From Syntrophales bacterium (GTDB taxonomy: Bacteria > Desulfobacterota > Syntrophia > Syntrophales > PHBD01), in NCBI GenBank assembly GCA_963668175.1, contig OY764159.1, positions 2,848,001-2,912,000 of the forward strand: DNA of 64,000 bases, written 5' to 3'. The notes beneath the pieces are model-generated. The model searched no databases. It worked only from the letters and a program-made list of their open reading frames with translations, and was not told where the DNA came from. The position numbers were made by a program, and so were the translations under genes. This document shows, in pieces, positions 8,946-16,827 of this stretch. How positions within the stretch are numbered: position 1 is the first letter of the stretch; every line of letters starts with the position of its first letter.

Positions 8946-9527
8946 TCACCGTCCGGCCGCGAGGAATTGCTGCAAAGCCCCCAACTGATCCGCCGTGGCC
9001 CTGAATGTGGTATTCTCGCTGTCCATGTATACGCGAAAAGTGTACTCCTTCGCTTTGCGCAGCGCATCTTCGGCTTCCGGCGTTAACTGAAACTTGCCCG
9101 TGATATAGCGGCTTTCCGTCGTGTAGACGGGACCGGGCCAGTAGTAACGGCGGCCGCCCGCCGGATAGGAGCTTTCGGTCTCGGTTTCGGTCTTTTTATT
9201 GTAGATCGGCAGGGTGAAATACGTCCCGTCGATGCGGAGGTAGACCTTCTCCTCCAGTTCGCGGCCGTTGAAATAGGACGGGGCGTAGATGCGGAAGAAG
9301 ACGGTTGCCGGCAAGGGTTTTCCGTCCTTGATTTCCCTTTCGTAGCTTACGGTCTCGTTTTCGAGGCCGCCTTCCACGGCCTTGTGGCGCATGTCCAGCC
9401 GGACCAGAACGCTCTTCTTGTACGGGTCGTCCCGGACGACGATGTTGTAGGACGGCGCGCATCCCGGAAGCACGCATCCCAGAAGAGAGACGATGACGAG
9501 CACGATTGAAAATTTTCGACGCTTCAT
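8946..9527 (-). CDS. Hypothetical lipoprotein
   Basis: Basic N-terminus, hydrophobic core, lipobox-like LLGC/LPGC, GAGGAG RBS. Confidence 0.7.
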   Translation of the reverse strand: MKRRKFSIVLVIVSLLGCVLPGCAPSYNIVVRDDPYKKSVLVRLDMRHKAVEGGLENETVSYEREIKDGKPLPATVFFRIYAPSYFNGRELEEKVYLRIDGTYFTLPIYNKKTETETESSYPAGGRRYYWPGPVYTTESRYITGKFQLTPEAEDALRKAKEYTFRVYMDSENTTFRATADQLGALQQFLAAGR

Positions 9528-9666
9528 ATTCCGCGCAACTCCTCCTCTGCCGTCAGCGTCAGCGACCGGTATATTAAATCGGTGCGCTTAGGAAAGCGAG
9601 GCGGGCATCCGGCAGATTGTTTCGACAGGATAGACCTTGAGGGCCTGTTTGGCAAGAGGCGAAAGA

Positions 9667-10737
9667 TTACGTCTGATCGAACCAGCACTGGGGGTCGTCG
9701 CCGAAGAGATCCCCCGAATGGGCGTAGGCGATGGCCCGGCAGCCCCGGCAATAGCGCCAGCGCACACAGGCGCCGCATTTGCCCTTGTAGTTTCCCCTCT
9801 CGCGCAGTTGCCGGAGTATTTTCGAAGACGACCAGATATGGCGGAGCGACGATCGGCGAATGTTGCCGATCCTGACCCCGATGCGGCGGCAGGGCATGAC
9901 GGAGCCGTCGCTCGTAATCGTGACGCCGAGGACGCCCGCGCTGCATCCCGAAAGTGCCCCGCCGTCCCCCTCTTCCATGGCGTCGTCCCCGCAGAGGCGG
10001 GCCAGGGGATCGCCGGAGGCGGCCTCGAAGTCAGGGCCGTCGAGCGTCCGGATCTTTTTGTAGGCGGCCTCTATCTCCCGCGGGGAAAGCAGGCTGTCCG
10101 CCATGCCCTTCCCTCTCCCGCAGGGAACGAGGCGCGAAAAACCGATGCCGGAAAATCCCATGTTCTTCGCTATGGCGGCCGTCTCCTCGATGCGTCCGAT
10201 ATTGGCGGCCGACAGGGTCATGTTGGCGCTCACGCTGTTGCCCGCCTCGACGAGAAGACGGGCGCCCTTCATGGCCGCCTCGAAGCTCCCGCGCCCGCGG
10301 ACGGCGTCGTGGACGTCCGGGGGCCCCTCCAGGCTGACCTGGATGTCCTTGAGGCCCGCGGCCTTCGCGCTTGCGGCATCGCCGCCCGTCACGAGCATGC
10401 CGTTCGTCAGGAGGGCCACCCGGAATCCCTTCTCTCCCGCATGGCCGACGACGTCCCACAGGCCTCCGTAAAGAAAGGGCTCGCCGCCGGTGAAATGAAT
10501 CGACGGGGACAGGGATATGCCGTACTCACGGGCCCAGGCCTGCAACATCCCTGCGGCCCCGTCGATCTCTCTTTTCACGTCACGGGCATCCATCTCCTCC
10601 GGAATCTTCCGCCCCTGGTAGCAATGGCGGCAGCGGAGATTGCACCTTTCGGTGAGATGCCACTGGATAAAAAAATCGAATGTCGTCGTTGCCGGACCGG
10701 CAACTATTTGCCCTTTCACTTCTTTCAGCTGTAGCAC
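9667..10737 (-). CDS. Radical SAM/SPASM-domain protein, putative peptide maturase
   Basis: QWHLTERCNLRCRHC (CxxxCxxC), FTGGEP, and SPASM cysteines CSAG...DGSVMPC...CGACVRWRYCRGC...DPQC. The true start may be the GTG at 10719. Confidence 0.92.
   Translation of the reverse strand: MLQLKEVKGQIVAGPATTTFDFFIQWHLTERCNLRCRHCYQGRKIPEEMDARDVKREIDGAAGMLQAWAREYGISLSPSIHFTGGEPFLYGGLWDVVGHAGEKGFRVALLTNGMLVTGGDAASAKAAGLKDIQVSLEGPPDVHDAVRGRGSFEAAMKGARLLVEAGNSVSANMTLSAANIGRIEETAAIAKNMGFSGIGFSRLVPCGRGKGMADSLLSPREIEAAYKKIRTLDGPDFEAASGDPLARLCGDDAMEEGDGGALSGCSAGVLGVTITSDGSVMPCRRIGVRIGNIRRSSLRHIWSSSKILRQLRERGNYKGKCGACVRWRYCRGCRAIAYAHSGDLFGDDPQCWFDQT
10688..10704 (-). promoter_or_regulatory. Putative bacterial SECIS element
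   Basis: GTTGCCGGTCCGGCAAC hairpin starting 11 nt after the second TGA. Resembles the E. coli fdhF SECIS upper stem-loop (GGUUGCAGGUCUGCACC, also 11 nt after UGA). Confidence 0.7.
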
Positions 10738-10832
10738 GATTTGCCGGAGTCCGCGGACTTCATCATCAGCCAGAAGGCCTTTTCCCGGCTCTTGGCAATC
10801 TTGCTCAGCTCTTTTCTCCTGAGAGTCCTCAT
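10704..10832 (-). CDS. Putative selenocysteine-containing RiPP precursor, 42 aa: MRTLRRKELSKIAKSREKAFWLMMKSADSGKSCYSUKKUKGK
   Basis: AAGGAGGTGA RBS at 10837-10846, ATG 10832, in-frame TGA at 10727-10725 and 10718-10716, TAG at 10706-10704. SECIS-like hairpin downstream. Overlaps the rSAM start. Confidence 0.75.
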
Positions 10833-11047
10833 CCTGTCACCTCCTTTCCGTGAAAGTGGGCCCGGGTCCCGTAAAACTTACGCGATGCCGCCGGAAGGCA
10901 TACACATCGCAAGGCCTTCATGTTTTATAGGATCGCCGCCACAAGAGCGTCTTTATCGCTTTACGGCAATGCGCCTTTTCCCCAGCTTATGAACGGTCGG
11001 TCGGTGTGGGTACGTTAACGTTTGCGCTTACGTCTTGACGGCGCGGC

Positions 11048-12148
11048 CTAGGCCCTGCCGACAATGAGTACCGGCTTGATCGTGACGCCGCGTTCGGCGT
11101 CGGCGACGGCCCGATTGATCCTGTCGAAAGCGTAGGCGGTGATGAGGCGGTCGAAGGGGAAGAGACCTTCACGGTAGAGTTTGATGAGGCGGGGGATGAA
11201 GCGCTGGGGGACGGCGTCGCCCTGGATGACGCTCAGGGCCTTCCTGCCGCCGGGAAGATGGTCGGGGCCGCTCGCGCCCGTGAGGAACGCCGAAGTGCCG
11301 CCGGGATTGAGGCAATCTGTGGCGAGGCGCATGAGCGTCGGGTCGCCGGTGCCTTCCACGGTATAGTCGACGCCCCCGCGCGCGATTTTCGCGATGCGGG
11401 CGGCGACGTTCGCCCGGCGGCTGTCGATCGTGTGCGTTGCGCCGAGTTCGCGGGCGAGCCGGAGGCGCTTCGGCACGATATCGACGCCGACGATCGTTTC
11501 CGCCCCGGCGATCTTCGCGGCCATGACGGCCGCGAGCCCGACCGAACCCGTTCCGAAGACGACGATGCTTGCGCCTTTCTTCACGGCCAGGGAGTTGAAG
11601 ACGGTTCCGGCCCCCGTCTGCATGCCGCAGCCCAGGGGCGCGAGGATTTCCATGGGCAGGTTTTTCGGGACCTTGACGACGTTTCGCTCCGTCGCCAGGC
11701 AGTACGTGGCGAAGGAGGACTGGCCGAAGAAGTGCCCGGCGACGCCGGAGGCGGCGAGGCCGTTGCTGCCGTCCAGGCGCTGGAAACCGAAGTTGAGGTC
11801 GTAGAAGTGCGTGCAATCGGCGGGACTGCCCTTCTTGCACGGCGCGCAGCGGCCGCAGGACTGGTACGAGAGCACCACGTGGTCTCCCGGGCGGACGGAC
11901 TTCACGCGGCCGCCGACTTTCTCGACGACGCCCGCGCCCTCATGCCCCAAAACAACCGGCTCGCCCGAAGCCCCCCAATCCATCATGCCGATGTCTGTAT
12001 GGCAGATGCCCGTCGCGACGATCCTCACGAGGATTTCGCCGGGACGCGGATTTTCCAGGACGAGGTCTTCCATCCTTAAGGGGCCGCCCGCCCTGCGCAG
12101 GACGGCGGCACGGATTTTCTGCATGGGCTTCTGCGAAACGGCGGTCAT
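11048..12148 (-). CDS. Zn-dependent NAD(P) alcohol dehydrogenase (aryl-alcohol dehydrogenase-like MDR)
   Basis: GICHTD, GHEGAG, CGRCAPC..C, GQSSFA and GTGSVG motifs. Confidence 0.9.
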   Translation of the reverse strand: MTAVSQKPMQKIRAAVLRRAGGPLRMEDLVLENPRPGEILVRIVATGICHTDIGMMDWGASGEPVVLGHEGAGVVEKVGGRVKSVRPGDHVVLSYQSCGRCAPCKKGSPADCTHFYDLNFGFQRLDGSNGLAASGVAGHFFGQSSFATYCLATERNVVKVPKNLPMEILAPLGCGMQTGAGTVFNSLAVKKGASIVVFGTGSVGLAAVMAAKIAGAETIVGVDIVPKRLRLARELGATHTIDSRRANVAARIAKIARGGVDYTVEGTGDPTLMRLATDCLNPGGTSAFLTGASGPDHLPGGRKALSVIQGDAVPQRFIPRLIKLYREGLFPFDRLITAYAFDRINRAVADAERGVTIKPVLIVGRA

Positions 12149-12762
12149 GAATCATCCTTCCCCGGCGGATCGGCCGGCATATCGTGGTCAAGACGGTAAT
12201 GCGATTTGAGGACGCCGTAGAGCCATTCCCTCTCCGGCTCGTTGGCGCTGGCGGCCAGGTCGAGCCTGCGCGCGCCCTGGTCGATCGTCAGGCGGTTTCC
12301 CGAAGCGAAGTCCCGAAGCCTGAGGGTGGCAAGCTCGGATGCGCTGAAGGCCGTCCGGTGCCGTTTTGGAAACAGCCTCTTCCATGCGTCCCGCTGCGAT
12401 CCGATGGCGAAGGAGACCCGCAGGGGGGCGATGCCGGAATCGTAAAGCGGTTCGGGGCTCGCAAGGACAATGGTTTCGGGGACGGCGCGCTGAAAGAGCC
12501 GGTAGAGATAGTACATGGCGAAAAGGCCGCCGACCGTCCACGTCCCGAGCCAGAAAAGCATGAATGCCCGGTAGCCGTTGCCGCCCGTCACCAGGGCTTC
12601 GATGCCGATGGCCCAGCCGACCGCCCACGCCCCGAGCCAGAAAAGCATGAAGACGCCGACAAAATAGCGCATGAACCCGCACTTGCGCTGGGGGATGACG
12701 ATGACGTCTTTCCCGTCGGCGGATTCCACCCTGATCTTCGAGTTGGCGGGGGGTGCGACCAT
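12145..12762 (-). CDS. Hypothetical membrane protein
   Basis: Two Trp-rich TM helices (MLFWLGAW and MLFWLGTW). Stop overlaps the ADH start. Confidence 0.7.
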   Translation of the reverse strand: MVAPPANSKIRVESADGKDVIVIPQRKCGFMRYFVGVFMLFWLGAWAVGWAIGIEALVTGGNGYRAFMLFWLGTWTVGGLFAMYYLYRLFQRAVPETIVLASPEPLYDSGIAPLRVSFAIGSQRDAWKRLFPKRHRTAFSASELATLRLRDFASGNRLTIDQGARRLDLAASANEPEREWLYGVLKSHYRLDHDMPADPPGKDDS

Positions 12763-13086: not shown

Positions 13087-16000
13087 TCACCTTGTCTTCC
13101 CGATGGGGAAGTTAGCTCCCGTCTGGATCGTAGGCGTCTGCTGCCGTTTGAAGACCTCCTCGGAAAGCCTCAGGACCTCGCCTTCCACGTAGTCCGCCAG
13201 GCCCAGGACGGTGATATAGCCGTCGTTCTTGATATCCGCCTTGCCCTTCAGGCCCTCGATGAGGACGTAGGTGAAGAGGCCGTGACCCTTGTATCCTTCG
13301 AGCGCGAGTTGCGTGTCGGACGACGCCGAGAAGACCGCCGAGCCGATGGCCCTCTGCAGGAGCTTGACCGCCGTCGCGTCGGTGAGGCCGCGCGTCTGCT
13401 GAAGAAGCGCCACCTGGATCTCCTTCCCGCCTTTGCCGGCGTTGCAGGTATCCAGGACGACGACCTTCTTCTGGGCGGGGATGCCGCCGATGAGCCCGGC
13501 AAGCTCTTTCTGGCTGATGGCGTCCCGGCCGAGATGGCGCGACGAAAGCAGAAAGACGTTGCTCGTCAGGAGAAAGTATTGCTCCTCGTTGTCCACGACG
13601 TCCACGACGCCGTGGGAGGCATCGTAGAATACGAAGAGGTCGTTGGGCTTGACTTTCGCACGCATCCCGGCAAAGGCCTTGCCGATGGCCTCCCTGGTCG
13701 TTTCGGCAGGCGTTGCGAGGACCCGGACGTCGACTCCCGCGAAGAGTGGCGACGCCGTTTTCTTCAGCGCCTCGGCAAAGGCCCTGGCGTCCGACACGGC
13801 ATAATTGAGTGAGATGGACTTGTTCTTGTATTCGTTGATGCCGATCACCAGGGCATGGAGATTCGGCTTATCCATCGCCGCACGGGAATTGACCGAAACC
13901 TCCGCAGGGACGGACTCCATGGAGTTGTCCCTGTTGAAGGCGATCGCCCGTATGTCGTTCCGGCCTTCCAAGAGCGGCACGGTGAACGAGAACGCCTGTT
14001 CTCCGGGCGCGGTCTTGCCCTTCACGGCCACCGCCCGCGTTTCGTTCGCCACCTGCGCCCCGTTGATATGGATCATGACGTTTCCGATGCCGCCCCCGTT
14101 GTCGGCGACGCGCACGGTAACCGTGACGCTGCTTCCGGAGACGGAGATTCCCGGCGCAGGGGATGCGATACGGACGGACGGGGCGGGCTTGCTCGCCAGG
14201 ATGTCGCCGAGGGTCTCGCCCTTGGGGATGTTCCTGCCGGCGAGGGCCAACTGCACAAGTTCGGGGCGGTAGAATTTCGAATAGAACTGGTCGACGCCGT
14301 AGACGCGGTTGCCGACCCGGACGTTCAGATACTTCGCGCCGTTCGCCGACGCGTTGAAGTAGCCTTCCGGCGTGATGACGACCCACTCGCCGTCCGTGAA
14401 GCTTAAGAACTTCGCCCTCTCTCTCCCCGTGGCTGCATCCCATGAACGGATCGTATTATCGCTCGATGCGGACAACACCCGCTTCCCGTCCCGCGACAGG
14501 GATGCGGTCCGCACCCAGTTCTCGTGCCCGGCGAATGTCGTGACGATTCGTCCGTCGTCCGTATCCCAAAGTCTGAACGCTTCTTCCGCCCCCGTCGAAA
14601 CGAATCTGTCCCCGCGGACGGAGAATTCCAGGTCGTAGACGATGTCCCTCTGTCCGACGAATCGCTTTATGACCGCACCGGTGGCGGTGTCGGCCAGGAC
14701 GATGGTCTTGTTGTCGCCGGGAAAGAGGATTCGCCCGCCGTCCGGGGAAAAGGCGAAGGCGAGCCCTACCACGGCCGCATAGCACTTCACCGCCAGGACT
14801 TCCTTGCCCGCGTCGAAGTTATACAATCTCAGGGTATAATGCTCAAGCGTTTCGCCTTGCACGGCAACGGCGACGGACTTCCCGTCCGGCGAGAGGGCGA
14901 CGCTGTGGCGGTAAGGTTCCGTCCAGCGGAACGTATCTTTCCGTCCCGTGGCCGTATCGATGCGCGTGGCCGTCTTTTCCGCCACGCTCAGCAGGTGTCG
15001 GTTGTTCTCCGCCAGCATGAAAGAAACGATCTTCCCGGCGGGTTCCGTGTACGTCATGATCTCCCTTCCCGTGGCGATCTCTTTCACCCTGAGCGTCCGA
15101 TCGTCGACGCGTTCCGTCGCATACCGGCCGTCCCGGGAGAAATGCGCGACGGATGCCTTATAAATCGTCTTCCCGGCGGCCACGTCCCACAGTTCCCTGG
15201 TCTTGTCCTCGCTGATCAATTGGAGATATTTCCCGTCGGCGGTGAAGCGCAGCACGCTCGTATAGCCTTCCAGCACCTTGAGGGGCTTCCCGTTTTTGAT
15301 GTCCCAGACCAGGGGGGATTTCTCCGTGTTGACGACGGCCTTGTCGCCGTCGGGACCGAGCGACGCCGAATAAATAACCGTCAACGGACGTCTCGCGAAT
15401 GCCTGTCCCCAGCGGCCGTCGGCGATATCCCAGAGGGTGGGAACATATCGTCCCGTGAAGATGACGGACCTGCCGTCCGGCGAAAAAGCTGCGCCATCGG
15501 TATGGCTTGTCGTGATGGTCGTCAATTCCTTACCCGTCATGGCGTCCCACAACCTTGCGCCCGCCGGCCCCACGGCAATCGCCTTTTTGCCGTCGGGAGA
15601 GAGGGCGATCCGGCGGAATTCCGGCTTTTCGTTCACATTCCAGGAAGAGACAATCTTTCCCTCCCTGATATCGACCATTTCGAACACTAGGCGCTTGGCA
15701 TTGTAATCGTTCTTCAGGAAAAGGCCGTACCGGCCGTCCCGGGACAGGGAGACCGCCGCAAACAGATCGATGCGATTCGTCTCGAACACGGCAACCGCCT
15801 TGCCCGACGTCGATTCCACGACATCGTACTTATCGTGTCCGGTCTCGGCCACAAGGTGCGTTTCGCCCGCGGCGAGCCTGCTGTAACCCCTGACTTTCGA
15901 CACCGTCCTGAGAACCCGTCCGGTGGCAACCTCCCAGACGTTCAGGGTGCCGCCGTCCATGTCCACGGAGGCGACGGTGTGCCCGTCGGGGGAGAACGCG

Positions 16001-16416
16001 AGGAACGTGATGTCGCGATGCCTGCCGGTCGTGGCCATGGTCGTGAGCACCTTTCCCGTAGCGGTGTCCCAGACCTTGATGATCCCCTTCTCGTCGCCCG
16101 AAGCGATCTGTTCGCCGCGGGCGGAGACGGCTACTGCGCCGGTCCTCGCACCTTGGCCGGCGAACGTCCTTATCTCCGCGCCGGACGCGACATCCCAGAG
16201 TTTGACGACATTGTCGTCGCTTCCCGTCGCCAGAAACCTGCCGTCGCCCGAAAAAGCGGCGGCGGTAACACCCGCCTGATGCCCCAGCTGGACGAATATC
16301 TCCGGCTTTTCGGCGCCGCAGGCCGCGCCGGCCGAAAGCCCGCAGACGACTACCGCGGAAAGCAATACTTTGTGAACCGTTGTCCTTATGCCTGATTTTA
16401 TATGATTGTTTTTCAT
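13087..16416 (-). CDS. Exported WD40-repeat protein with C-terminal caspase (peptidase C14) domain
   Basis: Signal peptide, many GH...WD repeats, Ig-like linker, LVIGINEY, and ASHG/LDTC catalytic dyad. Start placed at MKNNH after the AGGAG RBS. Confidence 0.9.
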   Translation of the reverse strand: MKNNHIKSGIRTTVHKVLLSAVVVCGLSAGAACGAEKPEIFVQLGHQAGVTAAAFSGDGRFLATGSDDNVVKLWDVASGAEIRTFAGQGARTGAVAVSARGEQIASGDEKGIIKVWDTATGKVLTTMATTGRHRDITFLAFSPDGHTVASVDMDGGTLNVWEVATGRVLRTVSKVRGYSRLAAGETHLVAETGHDKYDVVESTSGKAVAVFETNRIDLFAAVSLSRDGRYGLFLKNDYNAKRLVFEMVDIREGKIVSSWNVNEKPEFRRIALSPDGKKAIAVGPAGARLWDAMTGKELTTITTSHTDGAAFSPDGRSVIFTGRYVPTLWDIADGRWGQAFARRPLTVIYSASLGPDGDKAVVNTEKSPLVWDIKNGKPLKVLEGYTSVLRFTADGKYLQLISEDKTRELWDVAAGKTIYKASVAHFSRDGRYATERVDDRTLRVKEIATGREIMTYTEPAGKIVSFMLAENNRHLLSVAEKTATRIDTATGRKDTFRWTEPYRHSVALSPDGKSVAVAVQGETLEHYTLRLYNFDAGKEVLAVKCYAAVVGLAFAFSPDGGRILFPGDNKTIVLADTATGAVIKRFVGQRDIVYDLEFSVRGDRFVSTGAEEAFRLWDTDDGRIVTTFAGHENWVRTASLSRDGKRVLSASSDNTIRSWDAATGRERAKFLSFTDGEWVVITPEGYFNASANGAKYLNVRVGNRVYGVDQFYSKFYRPELVQLALAGRNIPKGETLGDILASKPAPSVRIASPAPGISVSGSSVTVTVRVADNGGGIGNVMIHINGAQVANETRAVAVKGKTAPGEQAFSFTVPLLEGRNDIRAIAFNRDNSMESVPAEVSVNSRAAMDKPNLHALVIGINEYKNKSISLNYAVSDARAFAEALKKTASPLFAGVDVRVLATPAETTREAIGKAFAGMRAKVKPNDLFVFYDASHGVVDVVDNEEQYFLLTSNVFLLSSRHLGRDAISQKELAGLIGGIPAQKKVVVLDTCNAGKGGKEIQVALLQQTRGLTDATAVKLLQRAIGSAVFSASSDTQLALEGYKGHGLFTYVLIEGLKGKADIKNDGYITVLGLADYVEGEVLRLSEEVFKRQQTPTIQTGANFPIGKTR

Positions 16417-16827
16417 CTCGCTCCTGTACATAGACCTATGCCTGTCATTGAATGAACGATATCCCAATACACGCGCACGGATAAGCTTCCGGAACAGATG
16501 CTCCCGTGACGGCGCGTCAGTTTAACACACAAATCTCTTCAGCCTTCCATGCAGCTTTGAGAAAATATTGTAAAATAATGTGAAGACAAAGTGTACTGAA
16601 TTTTACGCCGCACCGGTTCGTCCGTACGAAATCGTTGAAGGAACCTGACTCGACAAGGGATTTTTCCTCAGCTAGTCCGGCATCTTACACGATTCTTGCC
16701 GGGAGATTGGAAACGAGATGGCGGGATAGCCGTTTAGACGCGGCGGGAAATACGACCATCTGTCTCCGGAAGTGTTGATATAAGGAATATCGGAGGAAGG
16801 ATGAAAGGGCGCCGTTGTTTGTTGCAC

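Follow-up and report, generated by a model that had tools for sequence, protein, structure and literature searches.

The window analysed here, a stretch of 64,000 nucleotides (nt) from a Syntrophales bacterium (contig OY764159.1), carries a small open reading frame (ORF) with two in-frame TGA codons near its 3' end, followed by a hairpin of the type of a bacterial selenocysteine insertion sequence (SECIS). The gene for a radical S-adenosylmethionine (SAM)/SPASM enzyme overlaps the end of this ORF and runs through the hairpin. Coordinates of the peptide gene, the hairpin and the enzyme ORF are window positions, all on the minus strand (Table 1). The small ORF starts at an ATG (10832-10830), 35 codons precede the first TGA, and the 3' end reads AGC, TGA, AAG AAG, TGA, AAG GGC AAA, TAG, the second TGA lying 9 nt downstream of the first. 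If both TGAs are taken as selenocysteine (Sec, U), the 42-codon product is MRTLRRKELSKIAKSREKAFWLMMKSADSGKSCYSUKKUKGK, with the predicted tail C33-Y-S-U36-K-K-U39-K-G-K; the two codons are designated UGA36 and UGA39 below.

The hairpin spans 17 nt and can be drawn either with a GUC loop on a perfect 7-bp stem or as 6 bp with a GGUCC loop (-8.9 kcal/mol by RNAfold). It begins 11 nt after the second TGA (AAGGGCAAATA) and 20 nt after the first, which places the loop 18 nt from UGA39 and 27 nt from UGA36. The enzyme ORF lies in the +1 frame, covers the peptide tail as well as the hairpin, and reads the latter as V-A-G-P-A-T. The enzyme frame contains a GTG (10719-10717) that overlaps the second TGA. 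The first-pass annotation of this DNA had described a TGA followed after 11 nt by a perfect 7-bp stem with a GGTC apex, a hairpin 20 nt from the first TGA that also codes for VAGPAT of the enzyme, and a GTGA overlap at the second TGA; every one of these elements is present as described.

Table 1. Features of the peptide-enzyme locus (window positions).
Feature	Position	Strand	Basis or remark
Shine-Dalgarno region AAGGAGGTGA	10837..10846	(-)	Read directly upstream of the peptide ATG
Precursor peptide gene, 42 codons with both TGAs read as Sec	10704..10832	(-)	ORF and homologues
Cys33 codon TGC, invariant Cys	10734..10736	(-)	TGC 47, TGT 10 of 57 rows
First in-frame UGA, residue 36, predicted Sec	10725..10727	(-)	TGA in 57/57 rows
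Second in-frame UGA, residue 39, predicted Sec	10716..10718	(-)	TGA 56, TAA 1 of 57 rows
Predicted true stop, TAG	10704..10706	(-)	Its G is the first hairpin base
SECIS-type hairpin GTTGCCGGTCCGGCAAC, 6-7 bp, apical GGUC	10688..10704	(-)	RNAfold and comparison
Radical SAM/SPASM gene, 356 aa from GTG 10737	9667..10737	(-)	Start at GTG 10737 or GTG 10719

A scan of species-representative genomes with the radical SAM protein provided 57 related loci. The genomes are labelled mostly as Syntrophales/Syntrophaceae, Nitrospirota/Thermodesulfovibrionia or Geobacteraceae, and two as Syntrophorhabdales or Smithellaceae. An ORF of about 40 codons lies just upstream of the enzyme gene in 56 of the 57 (L058 has none), and in nearly all loci a strong ribosome-binding site of the GGAGGTGA type precedes the ATG by 6-9 nt. 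The ORF ends as C-x-x-TGA-AAR-NNN-TGA-AAR-x(-x)-stop in 56/57 loci. Codons were counted on 57 rows, made up of the window and 56 loci. The first position is TGA throughout, as the search pattern demanded (56 of the 57 loci matched that pattern); the second is TGA in 56 rows and TAA in one. The codon after the first TGA is AAG in 53 rows and AAA in 4, and that after the second is AAG in 29 and AAA in 28. The terminal stop, 2-4 codons past the second TGA, is distributed over TAG (21), TAA (20) and TGA (16), the locus with the internal TAA (L037) being tallied at its later TGA. The Cys and Lys codons around the TGAs vary only synonymously, and they do so in the peptide frame. Since the G of each TGA occupies a wobble position of the +1 frame and yet is fixed in 113 of 114 cases, selection acts on the peptide frame. 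Further upstream, residues E17 and C33 do not vary in the leader alignment (A2), and W21 hardly does. Judged by these codon patterns, the two upstream TGAs behave unlike stops, remaining invariant while the genuine stop drifts among all three stop codons.

The hairpin was found in all 57 rows. Measured from the second TGA, its closing pair comes after 11 nt (44 rows), 10 nt (10 rows), 13 nt (one row) or 17 nt (two rows), and a G occupies apical loop position 1 or 2 in every row (loops: GTC 17, GTT 12, GGTCA 10, GGTC 8, GGTCG 3, AGTTC 3, TGGAT 2, GGT 1, GGA 1). Distances from UGA to loop range from 16 to 24 nt for the second UGA and from 25 to 33 nt for the first; bacterial SECIS elements are described, in a passage of PMC10778597, as having 16-37 nt between UGA and apical loop, and both UGAs fall inside this range in 57/57 rows. 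A hand count on the 41 distinct hairpins found every core pair maintained, with the closing pair present as G-C (28), A-T (11) or G-T (2) and the sixth pair as C-G, T-A or A-T. In a covariance-model alignment of the 57 rows (54 distinct), 97.8% of 324 cells are paired; being fitted to the model, this alignment leans toward the structure, and the hand count on unique hairpins agrees with it. Compensatory changes on both sides occur in four of the six pairs (38 cells). None of 500 shuffles reached the hairpin's values, and controls slid along the alignment were 14-57% paired. Covariation of the stem across homologous loci had been proposed earlier as a check; once run, it revealed a conserved hairpin with compensatory changes in the TGA-bearing homologues.

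One could suppose that the hairpin is a mere by-product of the constraints on the V-A-G-P-A-T coding sequence, or a chance palindrome, as it does lie inside the enzyme ORF in the window and its single-sequence statistics are weak (see below). This is exceedingly improbable. The hairpin is retained in 30 loci whose enzyme gene begins more than 100 nt downstream; there it is non-coding, falls in other reading registers and still undergoes compensatory changes, and therefore coding constraints of the enzyme cannot explain it. Even in the clade where the two genes overlap, swaps of the closing pair from G-C to A-T change the enzyme residues (V/T to I/I) and leave the pairing intact, and residues 1-17, which this region encodes, are predicted to be disordered. 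The earlier proposal of an fdhF-type SECIS that doubles as enzyme coding sequence is borne out in the window's own lineage, where the hairpin is coding.

The closest precedent for the element is the SECIS of Escherichia coli K-12 fdhF, where the TGA is followed after 11 nt by GGTTGCAGGTCTGCACC; the GTTGC-N-GGTC-N-GCA core and the spacing are common to fdhF and the window. Both fdhF and the present family have a 16-17-nt hairpin with an apical GGUC and G at the first loop positions (compare GTTGCCGGTCCGGCAAC of the window and GTTGCAGGTCTGCAAC of L044). The stem is perfect here, whereas the fdhF stretch cannot pair perfectly. Moreover, the fdhF SECIS lies inside its ORF, while the present hairpin stands behind the stop of its own gene with two UGAs upstream and, in one clade, has the ORF of another gene running through it in the +1 frame, unlike fdhF. 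A position beyond the stop codon has been described, in a section of PMC4607533, for the SECIS of selenoproteins with C-terminal Sec. An Rfam scan of positions 10400-11000, with E up to 10, returned chance matches only (eukaryotic long non-coding RNA and small RNA families). With the comparative evidence taken together, the hairpin is very probably a genuine fdhF-like bacterial SECIS.

Public protein data bear on the first UGA. The leader profile built from alignment A2 was searched against 1.84 billion representatives and gave 124 hits, of which 114 (table count) end exactly at C-x-x, the last profile position and the site of the first TGA, because gene callers stop there. Among the exceptions, one hit had been translated with W at three TGA positions, and another (P0210) reads ...GKQCLKCKS, with Cys at position 36. 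A pattern scan for the DNA behind P0210 recovered three metagenome contigs (L096-L098) of identical sequence, TGC CTC AAG TGC AAG AGC TGA AAA AGT AAA TGA, followed by ATTGCCGGTTCGGCAAT and then by the enzyme gene. In these contigs TGC stands at the UGA36 position, and the hairpin is intact and still preceded, at 11 nt, by the second TGA. The existence of such a Cys/Sec pair argues that UGA36 stands for a Cys-like residue. It also points to the second UGA as a target of the hairpin, since in the Cys variant this UGA alone remains to be served.

These data make it very unlikely that neither UGA is decoded, that is, that the locus specifies a 35-residue peptide ending in C-Y-S and that the hairpin acts as a stability, attenuation or translation-control element for the enzyme gene. 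The gene callers' choice in the 114 hits would agree with such an arrangement, as would the terminator-like hairpin that directly follows in the separate-gene loci that were folded (see below) and the fact that the hairpin alone is not unusual in the genome. An ordinary stop, however, would vary among TAA, TAG and TGA, and position 1 is never other than TGA in the rows; where it is replaced, in L096-L098, the replacement is TGC. In addition, in-frame codons downstream of it are conserved with synonymous variation, and the hairpin shares the core and spacing of the fdhF SECIS.

The first-pass annotation had left a choice between two models, one in which both UGAs are Sec and one in which only the first is, the second being a stop coupled to initiation of the enzyme. 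The former fits better. Under the latter, the peptide would end in U-K-K and UGA39 would be GTGA-coupled to the start of the radical SAM protein. In its favour, L037 has TAA at the second position, 23 of 28 sequences (27 overlap-type rows and L097) have a GTG or TTG lying across the second TGA, and the only start open to the L040 enzyme is a GTG that overlaps one or the other TGA. Nonetheless, UGA39 as a stop is unlikely. The position is TGA in 56/57 rows while the stop 2-4 codons on varies freely, AAR follows it in all 57 rows, and it is the second UGA, not the first, that stands at the canonical 11-nt spacing. Furthermore, the Cys-first variants keep both the hairpin and the second TGA, and the hairpin would otherwise lack a target there; and the 30 separate-gene loci need no enzyme start at this place. 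Both UGAs are thus likely to specify Sec, and most likely a single hairpin would serve the two of them.

The source genome has the corresponding machinery. SelB and SelA were matched with 386.7 and 605.8 bits, respectively, and the best hit of the tRNA-Sec model was called by ARAGORN as a tRNA-SeC with anticodon tca. A SelD gene and three fdhA genes contain in-frame TGAs, and in folds of these four bona fide selenoprotein genes the UGA-to-loop distance is 17-23 nt. Across the order, SelB is above cut-off in 140 of 151 genomes, so its co-occurrence with the peptide-enzyme pair is uninformative; one genome with the pair has no SelB match and is only 85% complete. As a separate observation, the third FdhA match of the source genome (L076/L077, outside the window) comes in two pieces, the N-terminal one containing two in-frame TGAs and the C-terminal one lying in a different frame. 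A SECIS-like hairpin accompanies the first of these TGAs but not the second, which stands at the junction and may reflect a frameshift or an arrangement as two genes.

It is highly improbable that the UGAs are decoded through SelB and the SECIS as cysteine, by a tRNA of the tRNA-ReC type, or by near-cognate readthrough. According to part of PMC13582414, tRNA-ReC is enriched in genomes with UXXU motifs, and either UGA of the motif may be read as Cys. In the source genome, however, the top hits of the tRNA-Sec model are the tRNA-SeC and then a tRNA-Ser, no further search for allo-tRNAs having been made.

Several observations weigh against Sec at both UGAs under the control of one SECIS. The 57 rows are mutually related, and their counts overstate independence. 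The TAA in place of the second TGA in L037 could reflect a genuine variant with a single Sec, decay, or faulty assembly of a metagenome-assembled genome. No Cys variant at position 39 occurs among the 57 rows. The AAR that follows each UGA could be an RNA context signal rather than a Lys codon. UGA36 lies 27 nt from the loop, as compared with 17-23 nt in the four bona fide genes, and in E. coli the 11-nt spacing reportedly matters. The absence of a tRNA-ReC candidate among the top tRNA-Sec-model hits counts here only to the extent of that list, which was not a dedicated allo-tRNA search. Finally, the 71-nt fold has a z-score of -0.57, and the genome contains 51 hairpins with a perfect 6-bp stem and a GGTY(N) loop, compared with 36-43 after local shuffling; a TGA stands 9-13 nt upstream of seven of them. 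By this sequence alone the hairpin does not go beyond chance; by comparison with relatives it goes far beyond it.

Under the preferred reading, with Sec at both positions, SelB-GTP-Sec-tRNA(Sec) bound to the hairpin would recode UGA39 at the fdhF-like spacing of 11 nt, and the same hairpin would most likely also recode UGA36, 9 nt further upstream. One SECIS behind the true stop would in this way insert two selenocysteines three codons apart. The peptide is presumed to be the substrate of the neighbouring radical SAM/SPASM enzyme, which would probably modify the Cys/Sec tail, for example by thio- or selenoether cross-links. Within the window's clade, the enzyme ORF has extended over the peptide tail in the +1 frame; the hairpin of the other clade is non-coding.

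From 10719 to the CX3CX2C motif, the enzyme frame contains no ATG, GTG or TTG. This leaves GTG 10737 and GTG 10719 as the only possible starts of the enzyme, and with either one the hairpin is inside its ORF. GTG 10737, the first start-type codon, lies 10 nt upstream of UGA36. At the equivalent place, over the Cys codon, the 25 overlap-type loci with an open frame have ATG (22), GTG (1), TTG (1) or CTG (1). In L040 a stop (TAA) follows the upstream ATG, which leaves a TGA-overlapping GTG as the enzyme start; in L037, L042 and L097 an ATG overlaps the terminal TGA (ATGA). No single start position is common to all overlap-type loci. In a second arrangement, found in 30 of the 56 peptide-bearing loci, 140-250 nt separate the Cys codon from the start of the enzyme gene. 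In a maximum-likelihood tree of 35 enzymes, one branch with 100/100 support separates the 13 overlap-type from the 22 separate-type sequences (the midpoint root served for drawing only). The dual-coding overlap is real but limited to one side of the enzyme tree.

The first-pass annotation had further held that ribosomes must read through UGA36 to reach the overlap, which could make enzyme translation dependent on selenium. In that form, this part is not supported. GTG 10737 is already upstream of UGA36, and an ATG stands there in 22 of the 25 open overlap loci; the overlap loci share no common start, and in 30 of 56 loci the enzyme gene is more than 100 nt downstream. Wherever termination took place, be it UGA36, UGA39 or the true stop, a start-type codon would lie no more than about 30 nt from the ribosome, and read-through of UGA36 is therefore no precondition. 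The idea of selenium-dependent enzyme translation found no support in the analysis and would at best apply to the overlap clade.

Further features of the overlap region were noted in individual loci. In L037 (3002-3063) the enzyme frame also contains a TAA, and the enzyme start must be the ATG that overlaps the later TGA at the base of the hairpin. The base before the conserved Cys codon (equivalent to window position 10737, scored in L017-L073) is A in 49 of 54 loci and creates a +1-frame ATG 10 nt upstream of the first UGA. This ATG is present in 27 of the 29 loci with a far-downstream enzyme gene, although the amino acid of the codon concerned varies. Such conservation, which is at the level of nucleotides, could stem from a relic of the overlap, a regulatory +1 upstream ORF whose translation would melt the SECIS and terminator hairpins, or a decoding context. 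The +1 ORF from the ATG over the Cys codon was also considered as a second peptide in the separate-gene loci and was rejected, its sequence being unconserved past the overlap.

Four separate-gene loci were folded, and in each a second long hairpin directly follows the SECIS hairpin, before the enzyme gene. In L062 (2842-2960), L066 (2821-2940) and L048 (2859-2990) it ends in a U run, with z-scores of -3.1 to -4.1; in L045 (2844-2965) it is weaker (z-score -1.6) and has no U run. This second hairpin looks like a partial terminator between the peptide and enzyme genes. L062 also has, some 70 nt ahead of its peptide ATG, a promoter-like site that is close to consensus (TTGACA, 16 nt, TATCAT). In the window, scans with sigma-70 and terminator consensus sequences gave nothing useful upstream of the peptide gene.

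The enzyme matches only the Radical_SAM and SPASM families of Pfam (PF04055, 76.5 bits; PF13186, 40.3 bits), and an alignment of 35 of the 57 relatives shows no variation in its CX3CX2C motif or SPASM cysteines. No curated NCBIfam cut-off is reached; the highest-scoring model, the heme b synthase AhbD (TIGR04545), gives 186 bits against a cut-off of 500. Public names of the relatives are generic, some databases giving "AdoMet-dependent heme synthase". The best profile and fold matches are SkfB, anSME (4k37), SuiB (5v1q), PqqE (6c8v) and CteB (5wgg), whose substrates are all peptides or proteins, attacked in several cases at cysteines; for SkfB (6efn) the profile E-value is 1e-24 and Foldseek gives an E-value of 5e-16 with a template-modelling (TM) score of 0.64. 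Many maturases of ribosomally made peptides that carry post-translational modifications (RiPPs) have an N-terminal RiPP recognition element (RRE) or PqqD-like leader-binding domain; unlike these, the present enzyme has none by Pfam, and its PDB matches begin at about residue 16. An AlphaFold2 model has a mean predicted local distance difference test (pLDDT) score of 86, with residues 1-17 below 50, so that the overlap is predicted to encode a disordered N-terminal extension of the enzyme.

The nearest known system is the selenobacteriocin pair SbtA/SbtM (TIGR04081/TIGR04082), a thio(seleno)oxazole RiPP, which likewise consists of a small Sec-peptide gene beside a radical SAM/SPASM enzyme. The two systems differ in both partners. 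The enzyme scores 134.6 bits with the SbtM model, against a cut-off of 350, and aligns to profile positions 199-515 of 516, leaving the N-terminal half unmatched. The motif here is C-x-x-U-K-x-U-K, that of SbtA SGUG; seven versions of the peptide gave no match to TIGR04081, nor to any other NCBIfam model at E up to 1 or 10. Used as a protein-homology query, the 42-residue peptide returned only the window's own 35-residue ORF, within the word-index limit of that search. A 2026 review table of 119 prokaryotic selenoprotein families has "Selenobacteriocin" (TIGR04081, 2 Sec) as its only peptide/radical SAM entry and no C-x-x-U-x-x-U peptide, and literature searches returned no description of such a peptide with a radical SAM partner. 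The peptide probably belongs to an uncatalogued two-selenocysteine family paired with a radical SAM/SPASM enzyme, to judge from these comparisons. This would be the second selenium-peptide/radical SAM system, unrelated to SbtA/SbtM.

Two other groups of selenoproteins offer partial parallels. The UXXU-type Group 4 [NiFeSe] hydrogenases, as presented in part of PMC13582414 (2026), also have two UGAs 9 nt apart and one predicted downstream SECIS, and decoding of both UGAs by the single SECIS is raised there as a possibility that the same part does not put to the test. In contrast to the 40-residue peptide considered here, which has almost no Cys homologues, these are large enzymes with Ni-ligand cysteines, with the SECIS inside the ORF and with many Cys homologues. 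The "star" selenoproteins (KCU-star/DUF466, UXX-star) resemble the peptide in having Sec within the last few residues; they are, however, unrelated in sequence, mostly have one Sec, and none is tied to a radical SAM enzyme.

A wider scheme, possible though doubtful as a whole, would join one post-stop SECIS and two Sec in a 42-residue precursor to a radical SAM/SPASM partner that converts the C-x-x-U-x-x-U tail into a natural selenium product, either cross-linked or able to bind a metal; the locus would then represent a second family of selenium RiPPs, unrelated to the first. The enzyme of the Syntrophales-type clade would start inside the recoding zone, and there SelB occupancy of the hairpin, together with ribosomes that pause or terminate at the UGAs, would set the ratio of enzyme to substrate according to the selenium supply. 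Whatever the product, the locus would provide a compact natural test case for whether one bacterial SECIS can decode two nearby UGAs, the question raised in 2026 for the UXXU hydrogenases, and an example of a SECIS read in a second frame by a downstream gene. Selenoprotein discovery, as portrayed in the part of the literature covered, relies on Cys/Sec pairs and on longer ORFs; the peptide sits in its blind spot, and gene callers cut it at the first UGA in nearly all public hits.

Apart from the peptide-enzyme pair, no gene is conserved at these loci, the next-best ORF cluster occurring in 12 of 58, and no protease, exporter or PqqD partner could be named among the neighbour genes of the 58 loci. 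By this comparison, peptide and enzyme form a two-gene cassette. It is single-copy in the source genome. A model of the RNA and peptide tail gave strong matches in 19 of 151 sampled genomes of the order, including the source genome, and in none of the eight other genomes of the window's own family; distribution within the order is patchy. Beyond the order it is widespread, with 57 species-level genomes in the locus scan; 124 clusters of the peptide and at least 1780 of the enzyme were counted.

The stretch is found whole in four sequencing runs of one sample. In a wetland metatranscriptome, contigs of relatives cover the hairpin region; since contigs reveal neither transcription nor strand nor ends, these are no evidence of expression. 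Comparison of runs X1 and X3 with window positions 9600-11100 also brought up, in the sample from which the source genome is known, lower-depth contigs of other organisms, with diverged copies of the enzyme's N-terminal region and different hairpin-like sequences at the same place.

On the minus strand of the window, the cassette is flanked by a 193-residue lipoprotein-like ORF (8946-9527) and a 205-residue membrane-like ORF (12145-12762); neither has a Pfam family or is conserved beside the cassette in relatives. A zinc-type alcohol dehydrogenase is encoded at 11048-12148. Farther away, at 13087-16467 (minus strand), a 1126-residue ORF combines an N-terminal signal-like segment with many WD40/beta-propeller repeats and a C-terminal caspase (Peptidase_C14) domain.

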